From contig CAYQCY010000003.1 of NCBI GenBank assembly GCA_964416095.1, positions 27,877-91,876 on the forward strand: a stretch of 64,000 nucleotides of DNA, given 5' to 3'. The translations under genes were made by a program, and so were the position numbers. Under the pieces are notes generated by a model. It was not told the origin of the DNA. It did no database searches and worked only from the letters and a program-made list of their open reading frames with translations. Positions within the stretch are counted from its first letter, which is position 1, and each line of letters starts with the position of its first letter. This document shows positions 7,933 through 33,124 of the stretch, in pieces. The stretch comes from an uncultured Gemmatimonadaceae bacterium. GTDB lineage: Bacteria; Gemmatimonadota; Gemmatimonadetes; Longimicrobiales; RSA9.

Positions 7933-7961
7933 TTGACGGCCTCCCGAGCGTGTCGCAAACT
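7933..7961 (+). promoter_or_regulatory. candidate sigma70-type promoter of cspA (TTGACG-17-CAAACT)
   Basis: Hexamers at 7933-7938 and 7956-7961. This would give a ~60-nt 5' UTR, as is common for cold-shock genes. Pattern match only. Confidence 0.3.
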
Positions 7962-8028
7962 TGCCCCGCGTTTCCACGCGGCCAATGCGGCGCCCGTGAA
8001 GACCCGTTTCCACAACCACCGGGGTACC

Positions 8029-8235
8029 ATGCGCACCAGGGGAACCGTGAAGTGGTTCGACGACGCCAAAGGCTTCGGCTTCATCACGCCGGAGGACGGC
8101 AGCCAGGACTGCTTCGTCCACTACAGCTCGATTCAGGGCGAGGGTTTCAAGAGCCTGCAGGAGGGTCAGACGGTGGAGTTCGACATGGTTCAGGGGGACA
8201 AGGGCCCTGCGGCCGAGAACGTGGTACCTGTCTGA
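8029..8235 (+). CDS. cspA: cold-shock protein (CSD)
   Basis: [24 protein letters not shown]...DCFVHYSSI contains RNP1 KGFGFI and an RNP2-like FVHY. Uses the internal ATG of track ORF 7918..8235. Confidence 0.93.
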
Positions 8236-8263
8236 GCCGAGCAGAGATCCTGTACGAGAGACC

Positions 8264-8296
8264 GACGGCCGCTCCGGCGTATCCGGCGCGGCCGTC
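8264..8296. terminator. GC-rich hairpin between convergent cspA and the 8330-8647 gene
   Basis: GACGGCCGC (8264-8272) pairs perfectly with GCGGCCGTC (8288-8296). Confidence 0.5.
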
Positions 8297-8329
8297 GTCG
8301 TGCGGGGTGGTACGGCGGTGCGACCGGGG

Positions 8330-8647
8330 TCAGCCGCCGAAGCTGAGCCGGGTCATGTTCTCGAGGAAGACCCGGTCCCCGGGTGAGAGGACCTCCGGCC
8401 CGCTGGCCTCCACGACGTTCAGGAGCCGCTCCACTTCTTCCCGGTTGATGGGATGCAGGCTGTCCAGGTCAACCTGGCGCCAGCGCTCCCGGTCCCGCTG
8501 GTCCCGGACGAGCTGCGACGAGTAGTGGGAGTTCGGCTTCTCCACGCGCCTGCTGGCCGCGACCCGCTTCGCGTGCCAGCGCGGGTACCATACGCGCGCC
8601 ACGATGGCGGCGAGGAGGGCGATAGGTGCCGCGATCCAGAGGTCCAT
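8330..8647 (-). CDS. hypothetical single-TM protein (105 aa)
   Basis: C-terminal, sensible-looking part of track ORF 8330..9478, starting at MDLWIAAPIALLAAIVARVW. GC3-rich. The upstream part of that track ORF is antisense to the ABC-F gene. Confidence 0.6.
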   Translation of the reverse strand: MDLWIAAPIALLAAIVARVWYPRWHAKRVAASRRVEKPNSHYSSQLVRDQRDRERWRQVDLDSLHPINREEVERLLNVVEASGPEVLSPGDRVFLENMTRLSFGG

Positions 8648-8741
8648 GATTATTGATACACCGGTACCGGTCGACGTGCTCCATGTAGAGCGCCCACACC
8701 TTCTCTGACGGAATCCCGGCCCCGAAAGTTGCAGGGTGACT

Positions 8742-8802
8742 GCAGGCGGGAGGCGGAAGGTGGGAGGTGGGAGGCGGAAGGAACGGCGATACGGCGAGGG
8801 GA
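8742..8802 (+). repeat. 61-bp direct repeat R1: (GGRAGGN)5 heptads followed by ACGGCGATACGGCGAGGGGA
   Basis: 57/61 identical to 10771-10831. Ends 14 nt before the ABC-F stop codon. Confidence 0.9.
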
Positions 8803-8816
8803 ACTGGGAGGCCGGG

Positions 8817-10763
8817 TCAGAGGGGGTCGGCGAGGGCTTGTTCGACGCGTTCCCATTCTTCCATGAGGCGGGCGACCTCGGCCTCCTTGCGAGCGCGCTC
8901 CTCGTCCAACTTCGCGACCTGGTCGGGCGCGGCCCGCTGGTAGTAGCCGGGCCGGGAGAAGGTCCGGTCGATCTCGGCGAGCCGGGCCTCGGCGGCCTGG
9001 ATGCGGGCCATGAGCTCTTCGGCCCGGTCCCGGAGCCGTTGGCGCCGCGTCTCCGCGTCGGTGGTCGCGGGCCGGGCCGGGCCATCGTCGTCCCGTCTCC
9101 CTTTTCTGCGGGCCGTCTTCTCGCGCCGCTTCTCCCGCTGCGCCGCCACGACCCGGTCCACATCGAGGTGGTCGTCGCCGCAGGCGTGGATGTACTCGTC
9201 GTAGCTGCCGGGGAAATCGGTGATGCCGGTGGGGGCGATCTCCACGACCCGGGTGGCGAGCTCGCCGACGAACCAGCGGTCGTGTGAGACGAAGACGAGG
9301 GTGCCGTCGTAGGCCCTGAGCCCGTCGACGAGGGCCTCGATGGACTCCAGGTCCAGGTGGTTGGTGGGCTCGTCCAGGACCAGGACGTTGGGCTGCCGGA
9401 GGATGAGGCTGCCGAAGACCAGCCGCGTCGCTTCGCCGCCGGACAGGGTGGCGAGGGGTTTGGCGGCGTCGTCGTCATCGAAGAGCATGAGGCCCATGTG
9501 GGCCCGGACGAAGCGGCGGTCCCGGCCGGGGCAGAAATCCCGGATCCACTCTTCGGCCGACTGATCCGAGGTGGCGAGCCGCTCGTGGTGGTCCTGGACG
9601 AAGTATCCCGGGTGGGTCTCGTGGCCCCATGTCACCTGGCCGGCGTCGGGCTCCAGCTCACCCATGACGATCTCCAGGAGCGTGGACTTGCCGATCCCGT
9701 TGGGCCCGATGATGGCCAGCCGATCCCCGCGCCGGACCCGGAGGTCGACGCCGTGGAGGACCTCGTTGCCGTCGAAGGCCTTCCTCACGCCTTCGAGGGT
9801 GAGCACCTGCTTGCCGCTGGCCCGGCGCTGCTCGAACCGGAAGGTCGGGTAGCGGCGGGAGCTACCGGGCAGCTCCATTAGCTCCTCCGCCTTCTTCTCG
9901 ATGAGGCGGAGCTTGCTCTGGGCCTGGCGCGCCTTCGTGGCCTTGGCCCGGAACCGGTCCACGAACTGCCGGTGGTGGGCGATCTCCTTCTCCCGCTGGG
10001 CGATCTCCTTCTCCCGCCGCTCCCGCTCCGCGCGCTTCGCCTCCTGGAAGTCCGTGTAGTTGCCGTGGTAGAGCAGGACGGTCTCGTAGTCCACGTCCAG
10101 GATCCTGGTGGCCACGTTGTCCAGGAACCGGTGGTCGTGGGAGATGACCACGGCCGGCCCCGCGAAGTCCTGCAGGAAGGTCTCCAGCCAGCGGATGGAC
10201 AGGATGTCCAGGTGGTTGGTGGGCTCGTCCAGGAGCAGGACGTCGGGCGCGCCGGCCAGCACCTGGGCGAGCAGCACCCGCAGGCGGAATCCGCCGGAGA
10301 GGGTGGACAGGCGATCGTGGTGCACCTCTCCCGGTATGCCGAGTCCCTCCAGGATGCGGGCCGCCCGGGCTTCGGCGGCGTAGCCGTCGTGGCGCTGCAC
10401 CGTCTCCTCCAGCTCGGAGAAGCGGTGGGCGTCGAACGCCTCTTCCGGACCGGCCAGCATGGCTTCCTTCGCCTGCATGGCGTCCCACAGGACGGGGTCG
10501 CCCATGAGCGCCACGCCCAGGATCTCCCGGTCCTCGTACAGGAACTGCTCCTGGCGCAGCACGCCGAGGCTCGCCGAGCCCGGGATGGAGACGGTGCCCT
10601 CGGTGGGTGGCAGGTCGCCGGCCAGAATGTTGAGCAGCGTCGTCTTCCCCGAGCCGTTGGCCCCCACCAGCCCGTAGCGCTCCCCGGGGTTGAGCTGGAA
10701 GGAGACGTCGGCGAACAGGGTCCGGTCGCCGTACTGCATCCCCACCTCGGAAACCGAGATCAT
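8817..10763 (-). CDS. ABC-F family ATPase (two ABC domains, coiled-coil C-terminal extension)
   Basis: Two Walker A sites (GANGSGKTT, GPNGIGKST) and two signatures (LSGGFR, LSGGE). No TM domain. The inter-domain linker and Arg/Glu-rich tail are typical of ABC-F translation factors. Confidence 0.9.
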   Translation of the reverse strand: MISVSEVGMQYGDRTLFADVSFQLNPGERYGLVGANGSGKTTLLNILAGDLPPTEGTVSIPGSASLGVLRQEQFLYEDREILGVALMGDPVLWDAMQAKEAMLAGPEEAFDAHRFSELEETVQRHDGYAAEARAARILEGLGIPGEVHHDRLSTLSGGFRLRVLLAQVLAGAPDVLLLDEPTNHLDILSIRWLETFLQDFAGPAVVISHDHRFLDNVATRILDVDYETVLLYHGNYTDFQEAKRAERERREKEIAQREKEIAHHRQFVDRFRAKATKARQAQSKLRLIEKKAEELMELPGSSRRYPTFRFEQRRASGKQVLTLEGVRKAFDGNEVLHGVDLRVRRGDRLAIIGPNGIGKSTLLEIVMGELEPDAGQVTWGHETHPGYFVQDHHERLATSDQSAEEWIRDFCPGRDRRFVRAHMGLMLFDDDDAAKPLATLSGGEATRLVFGSLILRQPNVLVLDEPTNHLDLESIEALVDGLRAYDGTLVFVSHDRWFVGELATRVVEIAPTGITDFPGSYDEYIHACGDDHLDVDRVVAAQREKRREKTARRKGRRDDDGPARPATTDAETRRQRLRDRAEELMARIQAAEARLAEIDRTFSRPGYYQRAAPDQVAKLDEERARKEAEVARLMEEWERVEQALADPL

Positions 10764-10770
10764 TTGAACG

Positions 10771-10831
10771 GCAGGCGGGAGGCGGAAGGCGGGAGGCGGG
10801 AGGCGAAAGGTACGGCGATACGGCGAGGGGA
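10771..10831 (+). repeat. 61-bp direct repeat R2 (partner of R1)
   Basis: Starts 8 nt beyond the ABC-F start codon. Differs from R1 at 4 positions. Confidence 0.9.
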
Positions 10832-10859
10832 CGGCAGGCGCGAGGCGTGGGGCATCTTT

Positions 10860-11747
10860 CTACACTCCCGTGCGGGCGTAGCCGGCGTAGAATCGGCAGC
10901 GGCCGAGGGCGGCGGCGAGGAGGGCCGTGGCGAAGGCGAGGGCGGCGGCGACGGTGAAAGGCCACGGACTCGTCGCGGGCACGACCACCCAGGCCCCTAC
11001 GGCCAGGAAGAAAGCCGCGGCCACGAGCGCGATGCGCCACGTCCCCGCTCGGCCCCATGCACCGACTCCTGCCTCCGGGTTGAGGCCCGGGTCCACCAGC
11101 GCCTCGGCGGCTTGCCAACGTCGCCGCCAGAGCGGCTCGAGGGCCAGCTCGACGGCGAGGCCGGCGGCCCCGAGGAGCATCAGCACGCGGAGCGCCGGGG
11201 CGGCCCAGGCCACCTCCGCCGTCCGTGACCCGGGCGGCGCCGCGAGCACGGCGGCGCCCAGCGCCCCCAGCGACACGGCGGTGATGAAGAACGTCGTCGT
11301 GGTGAGCGGCGTGTTCCAGACGGGCACCGTGCGCAGGCGGTACACCCGGGCCATGCTGTAGACGAGCCCGGCACCGACGAGGAACACGGCCACCGAAAGC
11401 GCCACGAGGGCCGGCGACGAGGGTGGAGCCGCCGCGGCGTGGCGCCAGCGGCCCGGCAGCACGAAGAGCAGCCAGCCGCCGGCGAAGAGCACGGCGAAGA
11501 GGACCTCCCGGCTGAGCCAGGACGAGCGCAGGTTGCCCAGGGCGCGCCAGGCGTTGCGGGGCGTTCCCAGGTGGAGGAAGGAGACGGCGAGGGCCGCGGC
11601 GGCGAGGGGCAGGCCGGCCAGGAGCGGGCCGGCGATCCAGCGGTCCGCGGCCGCCCCCACCACCCACCACACCCCGGCGAGGGCCCAGAAGACACCCACC
11701 GCGAGCTGGGTCAGGAGAGTGAACGCAACCAGCGTGGGTTCCCTCAT
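10860..11747 (-). CDS. dmsC: DmsC-type membrane anchor subunit
   Basis: Polytopic hydrophobic protein starting MREPTLVAFTLLTQLAVGVFW. Its ATG overlaps the dmsB stop (ATGA). The upstream part of track ORF 10860..12320 is a shadow. Confidence 0.75.
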   Translation of the reverse strand: MREPTLVAFTLLTQLAVGVFWALAGVWWVVGAAADRWIAGPLLAGLPLAAAALAVSFLHLGTPRNAWRALGNLRSSWLSREVLFAVLFAGGWLLFVLPGRWRHAAAAPPSSPALVALSVAVFLVGAGLVYSMARVYRLRTVPVWNTPLTTTTFFITAVSLGALGAAVLAAPPGSRTAEVAWAAPALRVLMLLGAAGLAVELALEPLWRRRWQAAEALVDPGLNPEAGVGAWGRAGTWRIALVAAAFFLAVGAWVVVPATSPWPFTVAAALAFATALLAAALGRCRFYAGYARTGV

Positions 11748-12364
11748 CCGGATCGCACCTCCTCCCGGTTCGCCACCCGGGCGCCGTCCCGGGCCCGCGC
11801 CGTGTCCTGGTGCGCCGTCATGGCGAGGGCCGGCCGGGTGAGATCGGCTTCGGGCAGCGGGTAGGCCTCCGGCAGAGGCCCGTGGCGTGCCTCCAGCTCG
11901 TCCCGATCGCCGAAGTCCAGGACGCGCATCGGGCAGGCGGCGACGCAGGCCGGCGCTTCGCCCCGGTCCAGGTCGTCGACGCAGAACGTGCATTTCGTCA
12001 TGCGGCCGGCCGCGGCGTCGTACTGGAGGGCGCCGTAGGGGCACGCCCATTCGCAGTACCGGCAGCCCATGCAGCGGTCGGCATCGATGAGCACGACGCC
12101 GTCCTCCCGCTGGGTGATGGCCCGGGTCGGGCAGACCTGCAGGCAGATGGGATGTTCGCAGTGGTTGCACGCCATGGAGACGTGGTAGGCGAAGACGTCG
12201 TGCATCCAGGCGGCGCCGCGATGCTGCCAGCCCCCGCCGGCCACCTCGTAGACGCGGCGCCAGAGCACACCAGCCGGCAGCCCGTTCCGGTCCTTGCACG
12301 CCACCTGGCACGCCTTGCACCCGGAACAGGCCGAAGCGTCGAAGTAGAAGGCGTAGCGCGTCAT
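11744..12364 (-). CDS. dmsB: 4Fe-4S ferredoxin subunit (DmsB family)
   Basis: MTRYAFYFDASACSGCKACQVACKD..., CNHCEHPICLQVCP, CMGCRYCEWACP and CTFC...CVAACP make four Cys clusters. ATGA overlap with the dmsA stop. Confidence 0.9.
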   Translation of the reverse strand: MTRYAFYFDASACSGCKACQVACKDRNGLPAGVLWRRVYEVAGGGWQHRGAAWMHDVFAYHVSMACNHCEHPICLQVCPTRAITQREDGVVLIDADRCMGCRYCEWACPYGALQYDAAAGRMTKCTFCVDDLDRGEAPACVAACPMRVLDFGDRDELEARHGPLPEAYPLPEADLTRPALAMTAHQDTARARDGARVANREEVRSG

Positions 12365-14694
12365 GCCGGCTCCACCTGGACCATCATGGTGTGCTGGGCG
12401 GTCCCCTTGGCCAGCGGCGTCCAGCGCTCCGACGTGAGGACGTTCACCGAGCCGGCCTCGTCCTCGCCGCCCTCGCCGGGCGTCCACCAGGCGCCCTGGG
12501 GGATGTCCACCACGCCCGGCATGATCCGGTTCGTGACCCGGCACGGCAGCACGGTGGCGCCTCGATGATTGAAGACCCGGACCCGGTCTCCGTCCCGGAT
12601 GGCCCGCTCCCGCGCGTCCAGCTCGTTGATGAAGAGGCGCTGCGGGAAGGCCTCGGCCAGCCAGTCGTTGTTGGCGTGGGTCGAGTGGACCCGGGCCATG
12701 GTGTGGTGGCCCATGGCCTGGAGCGGGTGCGACGCCGCCTCCGGCCCGAAGGGGCTCTCCCACTCCGGGACGTACTTCGGCACGGCCGGGACCTCGTCGG
12801 GCCTGCCCATGTCGTGGAGCTGCTTCGAGAAGATCTCGATCCTGCCAGACGACGTCGGCAGCGGATGCGCCTCCGGGTCCGCCCGGAAGTCGGCGAAGGC
12901 CACCGCCGGCTCCGTCACGGGCCGGGACCAGACGCCGGCGTTGCCGGCCTCGAGCTCGTCCAGCGACGGGATGTCGGGGAACCGCCGCTCGCGGTAGCGC
13001 TCCACGGCCCACGCGATCCAGCCACGCTCGTCCCGTCCCTCGGTGTAGGCTTCGCCGATGCCGAGCCGCTCCGCCACCTCGGCGCAGATGCGGTAGTCGC
13101 TCTTCGTCTCGGCCAGCGGCTCCACCAGCGGCGGCATGAGGATGACCTCGTCGCCGTACTTCCAGCCGTCCTCGAGGCCCCAGGTCTCGAACTGGGTGCA
13201 CGCCGGCAGCACCAGGTCGGCGAAGCGGCCGGTGGGCGTCAGGAAGTTGTCCTGCACCGCGATGAACTCCACCAGCTCCTCGTTCGCCAGGATCCGGGCC
13301 GTGCGGTCGATGTGGGCGTGCTGGTTCAGCAAGGCGTTGCTGGCCACCGCCCAGATCAGCTTGATCTCCGCGTCCAGCCGACGGTCGGGGTCGACATTGC
13401 CGCCGCGGTCCTCGCGCACCGTCCGGCCTTCCGGCACCGCCTCGTCGAAGAGTACGCCGTCCTCGGCGCCCAGCTCCCTGCCCCGCAGCACCGCTTCGGT
13501 CCACAGGAACACCGGGATGCTGGCGCCCACGGGGTTCCGGCCCACGGGGAAGACGTTCCAGAGGGGCCCGCCGTCCGGCGCCTGGAGGGCGAGCCCGCTC
13601 GCCCAGCCACCCGCCACGCCGACGTTGCCCGTGATGGCGGCGAGGACGCACCCGGCCCGCACGACCTGCTCGCCGTAGGCCCGGCGCTGCATCCCGTAGC
13701 CCTGGTAGAGGACGCCGGGCTTCGTGGTGGCGTACTCCCGGGCGATGCGGGCGATGGTCTCCCGGGGCACGCCGGTGATGGCCTCGGCCCATTCCGGCGT
13801 CTTGGGGACCCCGTCGCGCAGCCCGAGGATGTAGTCGCTGTAGCTCTCGGCCTCGGCGCAGCCGGCGGGCATCTGCGAGTCGTCGAACCCCACGCAGTGG
13901 GTGCGGATGAAGGCGTCGTCGTGGAGGTCCTCGGTGAGCATGACGTGGGCCATGGCGCTCATCATGGCCACGTCCGTGCCCGGCCGGATGGGCACCCACT
14001 CGTCCGCCAGCGCCGCGGCGCTCATGGTCATGCGCGGGTCCACGCACACCACACGGGCGCCCTGCTCCCGGGCCAGCTTGACCAGGTAGTCGCTGTTGGT
14101 GCCGTCCCGCATCTCCGCCGGGTTCCAGCCCCACATGAGGATGTACCTGGCGTTCAGCCAGTCCTGCCGCTGGTTCCCGGTCTGGAGCGTGCCGTATACG
14201 GTAGGCGTGGCTACGTTCGTGGCGCCCCACGAGTAGCTGTTCCAGATGCCCAGGCAGCCGCCGTACAGGTTCAGCAGACGACGCGCCGTCTGCGACCCGT
14301 TCGTCTGGTTGTAGCTACCCGTCCCGTAGGGCACGAACAGGGCGCCGTTGCCGTACGTCTCCCGCACCCGCCGGATCTCGCCGGCCAGCAGGTCCAGCGC
14401 CTCGTCCCACGAGATCCGCTCGAACCGGCCCTCACCGCGCGCCGCCACCCGGCGTAGCGGATGCGTCAGCCGGTCCGGGTGGTACTGGCGGCGCAGATAC
14501 GCGCGACCCCGGGCACACGCCCGGAGCTGCGGGTCCGACACCCGGTCCGGGCGGTCGTCCGTCTCCAGCCGCGTGATGATGCCGTCCTCCACGTGGGCGA
14601 TGAGCAGGCACCGCCCGCCGCAGTTGTGCGCCGGACACCCCACCCGCACCCTGCGCGTAGCCGGCCCGATAGAATTCGCCGGAATCGTGCTCAC
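12361..14694 (-). CDS. dmsA: molybdopterin oxidoreductase catalytic subunit (DMSO reductase family, DmsA-like), no Tat signal
   Basis: 777 aa. The FS0 cluster motif CPAHNCGGRC begins at residue 19. GTG start. An in-frame TGA 8 codons upstream rules out a longer N-terminus. Confidence 0.88.
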   Translation of the reverse strand: MSTIPANSIGPATRRVRVGCPAHNCGGRCLLIAHVEDGIITRLETDDRPDRVSDPQLRACARGRAYLRRQYHPDRLTHPLRRVAARGEGRFERISWDEALDLLAGEIRRVRETYGNGALFVPYGTGSYNQTNGSQTARRLLNLYGGCLGIWNSYSWGATNVATPTVYGTLQTGNQRQDWLNARYILMWGWNPAEMRDGTNSDYLVKLAREQGARVVCVDPRMTMSAAALADEWVPIRPGTDVAMMSAMAHVMLTEDLHDDAFIRTHCVGFDDSQMPAGCAEAESYSDYILGLRDGVPKTPEWAEAITGVPRETIARIAREYATTKPGVLYQGYGMQRRAYGEQVVRAGCVLAAITGNVGVAGGWASGLALQAPDGGPLWNVFPVGRNPVGASIPVFLWTEAVLRGRELGAEDGVLFDEAVPEGRTVREDRGGNVDPDRRLDAEIKLIWAVASNALLNQHAHIDRTARILANEELVEFIAVQDNFLTPTGRFADLVLPACTQFETWGLEDGWKYGDEVILMPPLVEPLAETKSDYRICAEVAERLGIGEAYTEGRDERGWIAWAVERYRERRFPDIPSLDELEAGNAGVWSRPVTEPAVAFADFRADPEAHPLPTSSGRIEIFSKQLHDMGRPDEVPAVPKYVPEWESPFGPEAASHPLQAMGHHTMARVHSTHANNDWLAEAFPQRLFINELDARERAIRDGDRVRVFNHRGATVLPCRVTNRIMPGVVDIPQGAWWTPGEGGEDEAGSVNVLTSERWTPLAKGTAQHTMMVQVEPA

Positions 14695-14855
14695 GCGAGC
14701 CTTCCGCCTTTCGCCTCACGCATGTCGTCCCGCATGAAGTTCCGGGCCTGGTAGTTCCGCACCCCGACCCACGCCGTCTCGCCGTCCTTCTCCAGGTCGT
14801 CGATGGAGTAGACGTAGGGCTCGGACTTCATGAGCCAGTAGTTCCGGTCCGCCAA
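14691..14855 (-). pseudogene. EVE-domain gene stump (54 codons; a full domain is about 140-150 aa)
   Basis: Hand translation: GGAGG, 5 nt, then TTG start, giving MADRNYWLMKSEPYVYSIDDLEKDGETAWVGVRNYQARNFMRDDM. It then diverges (REAKGGRLA) and stops in a GTGA overlap with the dmsA start. The N-terminus matches the canonical EVE start YWLMKSEP...W.GVRNYQARNF. Confidence 0.7.
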
Positions 14856-33028: not shown

Positions 33029-33124
33029 GCGGTACCCTCCCACTGCAAATCCCCCAGTCCCCCGGGTCGGAGCGGGGCGGCCGGGAGGAGTCCCCCCAGT
33101 CGGGGCGGGGCGGCGGGGATGGGC

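Follow-up and report, generated by a model that had tools for sequence, protein, structure and literature searches.

Does a gene that lies exactly between two long direct repeats have to be a mobile one? This question is raised by a window of 64 kb from the genome of an uncultured Gemmatimonadaceae bacterium (contig CAYQCY010000003.1; the window is the whole stretch analyzed, and all coordinates below count from its first letter). Here the gene for an ABC-F ATPase (8817-10763, minus strand) stands between two copies of a repeat, R1 behind it and R2 in front of it. The gene order on the minus strand is dmsA, dmsB, dmsC, R2, ABC-F, R1, and then a gene for a membrane protein of 105 amino acids. 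We conclude that R1 and R2 are very probably variable copies of an intergenic repeat and not the ends of a cassette. As judged from the sequences compared, they are a lineage-specific and fast-changing C-rich spacer element in which the number of heptads varies. The ancestral copy is R1, in the 3′ untranslated region (UTR) of ABC-F, and the polymorphic second copy is R2, in the ABC-F leader. As an explanation of the locus as a whole, we favor with moderate confidence a resident ABC-F gene and a variable C-rich heptad repeat, with a possible role of R1 as a Rho utilization (rut) site and a possibly coupled leader.

R1 (8739-8802, minus strand) and R2 (10768-10831, minus strand) were found by repeat search as direct repeats of 64 nucleotides (nt) with 59/64 identical positions (92%) and a spacing of 2029 base pairs (bp). 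An earlier note, made from the letters of this DNA alone, had set limits of 61 nt and counted 57/61 identities, which is exact within those limits. R1 starts 14 nt past the ABC-F stop codon, again as described there. R2 lies between the dmsC stop and the ABC-F start, 28 nt past the former; its distance from the ABC-F ATG, given earlier as 8 nt, is 7 nt, or 4 nt when the extended repeat is considered. The two neighbors had been named correctly as dmsC and a small transmembrane gene. The first (10860-11747, minus strand) matches Pfam DmsC and codes for the membrane anchor as the last gene of dmsABC, and the second (8330-8647, minus strand) codes for the 105-residue protein downstream of R1.

Each repeat consists of five heptads, C-rich on the transcribed strand (CCTYCCR), and a 20-nt tail. 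In the order of the mRNA strand, R1 reads as the tail TCCCCTCGCCGTATCGCCGT, the heptads TCCTTCC GCCTCCC ACCTCCC ACCTTCC GCCTCCC, and then GCCTGCAGT. R1 and R2 have the same order of heptad variants (TTCC, TCCC, TCCC, TTCC, TCCC), so the array of five heptads predates the copying of one site onto the other. A GCCTSCMGT-like motif opens and closes each repeat unit. In addition, a partial extra unit, ACGGCAGGCGCGAGGCG in plus-strand letters (10831-10847, minus strand), matches the start of R2 and is the flanking direct repeat of a 63-bp length difference described below.

How far do these patterns exceed chance? Of the 20-nt tail ACGGCGATACGGCGAGGGGA the window has exactly two copies, where shuffled sequences predict 0.01, and the heptad pattern has 8 overlapping matches against 0.07 expected. 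For the two-heptad pattern GGRAGGNGGRAGG there are 7 matches (0.12 expected), 7/7 of them within R1 or R2. Tandem Repeats Finder (TRF) reported period 7 with 5.3-5.4 copies at R1 and at R2, and period 21 in addition at R2. Together, these counts bear out the structure of five heptads plus a conserved segment that had been read from the letters. R1 and R2 form the sole strong direct-repeat family of the region, and the 64-nt repeat is found nowhere else in the window. Contig L054, from an independent Logan assembly (SRR7048218), agrees with the window at every position (100%) along R1, down to the bases that are specific to R1, and breaks off within the R1 tail; a fault of one assembly therefore does not explain R1.

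Outside the window the element is rare. The tail scan covered one genome per GTDB species, a collection in which the source genome is absent, and gave one match only, in a coding region of Opitutales without heptads, which we read as chance. A search of about 500 kb of related loci for heptad arrays and for fuzzy matches to the tail gave hits in the window, L054 and one further contig (L003, see below) only. The absence of the tail from the GTDB representatives and of the arrays from the related loci indicates a lineage-specific element. The Rfam scan detected no family at R1 or at R2.

What do close relatives carry at this place? In contig L055 (metagenome Ga0180434), the nearest relative detected, DNA identity to the window is 94.3% along dmsB-dmsC and 95.5% in the initial 480 nt of ABC-F, and its dmsC (P0166) is 94% identical to that of the window. 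Here dmsC is directly followed by ABC-F after a spacer of 33 nt, which has neither the tail motif nor the 63-bp R2 unit. The spacer reads TAG-agca-ATG CCTCCCG CCTCCCG CCCGCCG TTGAA-ATG, where the last ATG is that of ABC-F, and two or three heptads are kept. The window carries exactly 63 extra nt compared with L055. Because the flanking heptad sequence is repeated, the placement of this segment is ambiguous within 10768-10853; in the BLAST alignment, positions 1529-1551 of L055 match window 10853-10831 and 10790-10768 alike. That a single tract of L055 matches both flanks indicates a clean insertion or deletion of 63 bp between short direct repeats.

The other end of the gene is seen in contig L003, also from Ga0180434. 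Behind ABC-F it has a gap of 14 nt, the tail with one mismatch, two heptads, a conserved block of about 90 nt, and the same small gene. Its identity to the window is 94-99% per 100 nt over 10248-9149 and falls to 89-94% in the final 300 nt of ABC-F. With five heptads at R1 in the window and two in L003, the copy number varies between close relatives. L003 is probably the partner contig of L055. Two points weigh against our use of this pair: they are separate contigs of one metagenome and perhaps come from different genomes, and the first 400 nt of L003 (against window 10648-10249) are 60-79% identical to the window and 75% identical to L055 in the overlap, which makes L003 a mosaic. The mosaic 5′ part is either an assembly chimera or the result of recombination with a divergent ABC-F allele. 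The breakpoint lies at the Walker-B/LLLDEPTNHLD segment, which is duplicated within the gene (window 10194-10248).

In a third locus, L002, dmsABC is followed by HIT and HNH genes, a gap of 800 nt after the HNH gene that is free of genes, and then ABC-F. Single-protein tblastn was used for this comparison with the window, and the identities were 71% for ABC-F, 84-85% for dmsA, 66% for dmsB and 43% for dmsC. Since L002 keeps ABC-F downstream of dmsABC, the linkage of the two is old. More distant relatives have the small gene or dmsABC in other contexts.

These arrangements bear directly on the idea of a mobile one-gene cassette. According to it, recombination, either site-specific or homologous, brought ABC-F to this place and duplicated an attachment or target sequence into R1 and R2; on excision one copy of the repeat would remain. 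The geometry is indeed suggestive: the 64-bp direct repeats bracket exactly one gene, near its stop and its start, repeats of this length can support the loss of the intervening 2 kb, and the end of L054 inside R1 could reflect a branching assembly graph. Moreover, a single promoterless-looking open reading frame (ORF) that has a repeat of about 60 nt behind it, with the repeats in direct order after successive genes, resembles the cassettes of integrons. However, in L055 dmsC is followed at once by ABC-F and R2 is missing, in L003 the small gene comes after ABC-F, and in L002 the linkage with dmsABC is kept at 71% protein identity. The content of guanine plus cytosine (GC) is flat across ABC-F (0.68-0.74), so that the gene has no compositional anomaly. 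A Pfam scan of about 30 ORFs between 2.7 and 46.5 kb revealed ordinary chromosomal and housekeeping functions, and no recombinase, integrase or transposase among them.

The structure of the repeat also differs from attachment sites of the attC type, which are imperfect inverted repeats (R''-L'' / L'-R') forming hairpins. The present repeat is strand-asymmetric, with 80-83% purine, it has no internal inverted symmetry, and folding of the 64-nt RNA gave a minimum free energy (MFE) of -0.2 kcal/mol and no attC-like hairpin. In addition, ABC-F genes of this type are ubiquitous, with at least 7985 homologues at E <= 1e-50 among 8000 candidates scored. The earlier note had proposed an inserted cassette with att-like scars and had suggested a search for an empty site, where dmsC is followed by a single repeat and the small gene. 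Such a site, lacking ABC-F between dmsC and the small gene, was present in none of the few relative contigs sampled. Instead, ABC-F is present at this place in relatives that do not have a repeat on either side of it, which is for the most part what that note had named as speaking against its proposal. Altogether, insertion as a cassette is highly improbable.

Is the protein of a kind that would be expected to move? By its sequence it is the product of a resident chromosomal housekeeping gene, YbiT-like and outside the antibiotic resistance (ARE) subfamily. It has 648 amino acids, and Pfam identified two ABC_tran domains, the ABC_tran_Xtn linker, and a C-terminal coiled-coil ABC_tran_CTD domain. 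In a PDB search, the nearest solved relative was YbiT of E. coli (E = 7e-148, residues 3-529), while Uup gave 1.5e-72. The NCBIfam model PRK15064 scored 583 bits, under its cut-off of 762, and the extra C-terminal ABC_tran_CTD domain is present. For the ARE models listed in NCBIfam (Msr, Vga, Lsa, Sal, OptrA and others) the protein falls far below every cut-off. Its best full-length non-self homologue is 71% identical, and the start MISVS is common to all orthologues examined. By the names of the homologues, the organism belongs to Gemmatimonadota, near Longimicrobiales. A separate feature of the gene is a perfect tandem duplication of 21 nt (window 9976-10017; TRF 100% match, 2.0 copies), which is also present in L003 and encodes REKEIAQ-REKEIAH in the interdomain linker. 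This linker is the part of ABC-F proteins that contacts the ribosome and tRNA.

If ABC-F was resident, then we can ask: How did a second copy of the repeat come to stand before it? When the lineages of the window and of Ga0180434 parted, each of the two spacers already had a short heptad tract, and the tail was in place at R1. Today the lineages differ by three heptads (21 bp) at R1, whereas the difference at the upstream spacer is exactly 63 bp. Most likely, either a unit of the R1 type was copied into the upstream spacer by ectopic gene conversion or by slippage between tracts 2 kb apart, or, in reverse, 63 bp were precisely deleted in the relative. In either event, the GCCTSCMGT-like motif at the ends of the unit would give microhomology for ectopic conversion or for precise deletion. 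A point against the order of events that we prefer is that the direction of the 63-bp event is not fixed, since no outgroup keeps the dmsC-ABC-F junction: among the dmsC homologues sought for this purpose, L056-L058 have no ABC-F beside dmsC.

In their make-up the repeats are like intergenic arrays with a variable number of tandem repeats (VNTR). Units of 7 nt lie head to tail with a higher period of 21 nt, the copy number is five in one lineage and two in a very close relative, and insertions or deletions are precise between flanking repeats. Unlike VNTRs, the array continues into a 20-nt tail of unique sequence, and the whole unit of 63-64 nt was copied 2 kb away; R1 and R2 also have no phase-variable promoter spacing and no frame switch in a surface gene.

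Does such an element have any function? On RNA level both copies are extreme. Among the 70-mers of the window (n = 25,574, both strands), the least structured one is at R1 (MFE -0.2 kcal/mol) and the second at R2 (-1.3), against a background with mean -25.8 and standard deviation 6.0. The 99-nt spacer folds worse than 199/200 shuffles. In windows of 78 nt the C/G ratio is 4.6 at R1, the maximum of the whole 64 kb, and 3.29 at R2, and only 0.06% of such windows reach 3. The orthologue of R1 is the least structured window in L003 as well. Long, unstructured, C-rich RNA is typical of rut sites such as those of tna, mgtA, corA and the rho leader, which R1 and R2 resemble in being about 64-78 nt long, G-poor, and provided with spaced C residues. 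RhoTermPredict defines rut sites by a window of 78 nt with C/G > 1 and C residues every 11-13 nt (PMC6407284), and the regularly spaced C residues in R1 and R2 alike agree with this composition.

The position of the repeats is also like that of rut sites. Both follow stop codons closely, no intrinsic terminator-like site was detected between these genes, and R2 stands in a leader where ribosomes could mask it. By contrast, L002 has a GC hairpin after the ABC-F stop. Beyond R1, a sequence TGCAAC-N17-CGTC (8707-8733, minus strand) looks like the small gene's own promoter candidate of the extracytoplasmic function (ECF) type, as judged by its likeness to the consensus of ECF-sigma promoters. It is kept upstream of the small gene in L003 (about 1893-1925) and in L050-L053 (in L050 and L052 upstream of 9001), where ABC-F is absent and the small gene stands in unrelated contexts. 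As this putative promoter starts 5 nt after R1, R1 would be outside the small gene's transcript. R1 is thus located just past the ABC-F stop, with no intrinsic terminator nearby and with the next gene's candidate promoter following, where a terminator of the dms/ABC-F transcript would be expected, and it would act as a Rho loading (rut) site ending this transcript.

R1 itself is probably untranslated, for the ORF running through it is closed by a TAG in L003, as read from the sequence. In this connection, a real 68-amino-acid ORF across R1 (8650-8856, in the same frame as an ORF found across R2) was considered and rejected: apart from the TAG in L003, it would cross the small-gene promoter.

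Composition and geometry tentatively suggest a rut function for the R1/R2 tract. Several points weigh against it. Criteria of the RhoTermPredict type are prone to high false-positive rates. Within 150 nt downstream, pause hairpins are weak, with GC-rich 4-bp stems only. Known rut sites, unlike R1 and R2, are neither sequence repeats nor built of heptads, and Rho dependence is read here from composition. Finally, L055 manages without R2, so that R2 is dispensable and may be neutral.

Could both copies then be neutral low-complexity DNA, that is, slippage-prone microsatellites in non-essential spacers, with the 63-bp copy as a by-product of repair and no role in expression? In lineages about 5% diverged, a segment of 63 bp is indeed either there or missing, the copy number differs by 21 bp, and the element is absent from every more distant relative. 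The codons of a candidate ORF upstream of ABC-F (see below) diverge fast (4/24 nt, 2 of them non-synonymous, by hand count), and there is neither an Rfam match nor significant RNA structure. However, neutrality does not easily account for the fact that both copies are the most extreme outliers of composition and structure in 64 kb and have the same orientation to transcription. Between lineages with 74-80% identity in the non-coding DNA around it, the R1 tail differs at 1 of 20 positions. The two length differences, each a multiple of 21, leave the reading frame intact. In L002, independently, the ABC-F leader contains tandem repeats rich in C (34 nt x 3.7) as well as a C-rich stretch without structure. 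A purely neutral origin therefore seems to us somewhat unlikely, though it deserves serious attention.

The leader of ABC-F is the second feature that may point to a function. The earlier note had described it on the mRNA as a run of CCUCC/CCUUCC motifs without a normal Shine-Dalgarno (SD) sequence, and this is borne out in a genome that uses SDs widely, with GGAGG-type motifs before many starts. The ABC-F start lacks an SD in the window and in all orthologues examined. A candidate upstream ORF, MPHASRLPSPRRIAVPFASRLPPSASRLPFK* (10760-10855, minus strand), of 31 codons contains the whole of R2. Its ATG lies 4 nt past the dmsC TAG, with GGGAG 9 nt before this ATG, and its TGA overlaps the ABC-F ATG as ATGA. 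In L055 the arrangement is the same with 10 codons (MPPASRPPLK*), so that the 63-bp difference preserves both the reading frame and the overlap of stop and start; the overlap and the own initiation signal of the upstream ORF are seen in the window and in L055 both. Ribosomes would reach the SD-less ABC-F start by termination and reinitiation from the upstream ORF, the unstructured tract would keep this start accessible, and a Rho site in R2 would be exposed only when the upstream ORF is not translated.

The arrangement is like AUGA coupling, with an SD-led upstream ORF 4 nt past the dmsC stop that ends in AUGA on an SD-less gene and is kept in L055. It is unlike AUGA coupling in that the length of the upstream ORF varies threefold in close relatives. 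Further observations speak against coupling. The pyrimidine tract is free of stops in every frame, so an in-frame upstream ORF ending at ATGA would occur in about 1/3 of cases by accident, and since ABC-F always has ATC as its second codon, the ATGA overlap arises of itself. In the frame of the upstream ORF, the GC content at third codon positions is only 81%, against 68-70% in the other two frames (hand count). A comparable upstream ORF is absent in the more distant orthologues. On composition and geometry we regard coupling to ABC-F as possible with the same reserve as the rut function.

As for the idea of a repeated translational leader, it holds weakly for R2, which lies inside the candidate coupling upstream ORF, and fails for R1, which belongs to the 3′ UTR and precedes the small gene's putative promoter. 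We infer that R1 most likely serves as a rut site or terminator, and that the leader tract most likely serves in coupling or in keeping the start accessible.

The corresponding region of L002 is of interest here. Its ABC-F leader has an unrelated C/T-rich tandem repeat of 34 nt in 3.7 copies (L002 7777-7923), positions 7956-8000 are very C-rich up to the start, and the last 70 nt of the leader are among the least structured in that locus. Such a leader, C-rich and unstructured, may therefore be suited to this ABC-F gene. In the window, folding of the leader and the start region gave z-scores of -0.6 to +2.1, which support no structure. A perfect inverted repeat of 9 bp, TCGCCGTAC / GTACGGCGA (10725-10736 and 10811-10819), can pair the R2 tail with ABC-F codons 10-13. 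The 9-bp complement (R2 tail UCGCCGUAC) is present in the MFE fold and needs an R2-specific A that is absent from R1. As a conserved structure this pairing was rejected: it is absent in L055 and not significant.

An upstream ORF invites comparison with the attenuators of ARE ABC-F genes (vmlR, msrD, vga(A)), which also have a short ORF immediately upstream of ABC-F. By analogy, a Pro/Arg/Ser-rich peptide from the upstream ORF might stall ribosomes when ABC-F activity is low, alter Rho access or reinitiation, and so autoregulate ABC-F. With an SD of its own, the upstream ORF runs into the ABC-F start and spans the whole rut-like tract, and the logic is that of tnaC, where a rut site lies beside the stop codon of the leader peptide. 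Housekeeping ABC-F proteins are also reported to relieve stalls from particular nascent peptides (PMC11162784, PMC11381351). However, this ABC-F is YbiT-like, and the stalls on which YbiT/YkpA acts are poly-basic and poly-acidic, while on proline-rich ones it is reported to have no activity (PMC11381351); the peptide contains no poly-basic or poly-acidic run. Proline stalls are relieved by Uup/YfmR (PMC10895253; PMC11162784), and a proline-stall sensor for a Uup-type factor is weakened as a candidate for the same reason.

Other features of the leader also differ from those of a ribosome-sensing system. The peptides of 31 amino acids in the window and 10 in L055 are very different, and no such upstream ORF exists in more distant orthologues. 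Unlike the leaders of ARE genes, the spacer has no alternative terminator and antiterminator hairpins, its folding is no better than that of shuffles, and its sequence is not conserved. The protein, a housekeeping one, scores below the cut-offs of every ARE ABC-F model listed. We therefore consider a stalling leader peptide very unlikely.

A bolder form of the coupling idea may also be considered. The heptad tract might be a selected device in which the SD-less ABC-F is expressed only through an SD-led upstream ORF crossing a strong Rho-loading tract, so that ribosome transit gates both transcription and translation. The heptad number, changing in steps of 21 nt and in frame, would serve as a tuning knob, and R1 would be the same module reused as the operon terminator. 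This we judge to be quite unlikely.

The opposite strand offers one more alternative. On the plus strand, R1 and R2 are the most purine-rich (80-83%) and the most G-over-C-skewed 60-mers of the window, with many GG runs and GGA motifs, so that the GGGAGG/GGAAGG units might form G-quadruplex or triplex DNA on the template strand, or an antisense GGA-rich RNA might titrate a CsrA-like protein or ribosomes. But no promoter-like site or plus-strand gene was found there, and nothing in the relatives speaks in favor of it. In known CsrA sponges the GGA motifs are in hairpin loops, and the present sequence is unable to fold; a pyrimidine at every seventh base breaks the mirror symmetry needed for a triplex. 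A function of the G-rich strand is extremely improbable.

With the variable spacer repeat as the preferred reading, an apparent mobile cassette carrying a translation-factor ATPase becomes an ordinary resident gene with a fast-evolving repeat in its spacers, and a false lead is removed. The locus illustrates how ectopic copying between microsatellite tracts can mimic the boundaries of a cassette. The remaining interest is that in a genome of 70% GC R1 and R2 are by far the most C-rich and structure-free RNA in 64 kb, each of them after a stop codon. If Rho loading or coupling is real, the locus would be a simple testable case of terminators and SD-independent starts in high-GC bacteria, and it could suggest how the expression of a housekeeping ABC-F is set. 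To our knowledge, little has been published on how expression of housekeeping ABC-F factors is set.

The other genes of the region can be described briefly. Upstream of dmsC lie dmsB (about 11753-12364, minus strand) and dmsA (12361-14694, minus strand), both subunits of a molybdopterin oxidoreductase. Abutting the dmsA start, an ORF of 54 amino acids (14691-14855, minus strand) matches only positions 1-42 of 145 of Pfam EVE (E = 3.8e-16). The remaining EVE domain was found nowhere in the window, and the ORF is a truncated gene remnant. Its place indicates that the DNA at the 5′ border of the dms operon was rearranged at some time. At the junction of this remnant and dmsA, a heptad-like sequence GTGAGGCGAAAGGCGGAAGG (14700-14719, minus strand) is inverted relative to R1 and R2; it fits the heptad pattern with 3 mismatches, and 0.07 such matches are expected in the window. 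This sequence supplies the SD of dmsA, GGAAGG, 6 nt before the GTG.

On the other side of ABC-F, the 105-residue membrane protein has no family in Pfam or NCBIfam. Beyond it lies a cold-shock gene on the plus strand (8029-8235), whose 5′ region and coding sequence are overlapped by a sub-threshold Rfam match to the cspA thermoregulator (7942-8299, plus strand; 39.9 bits against a gathering threshold of 78, E = 1e-7), the only notable Rfam match. The top TRF score of the window belongs to a tandem repeat of 33 nt at 33056-33119, with 1.9 copies and 87% match, in a G-rich stretch.

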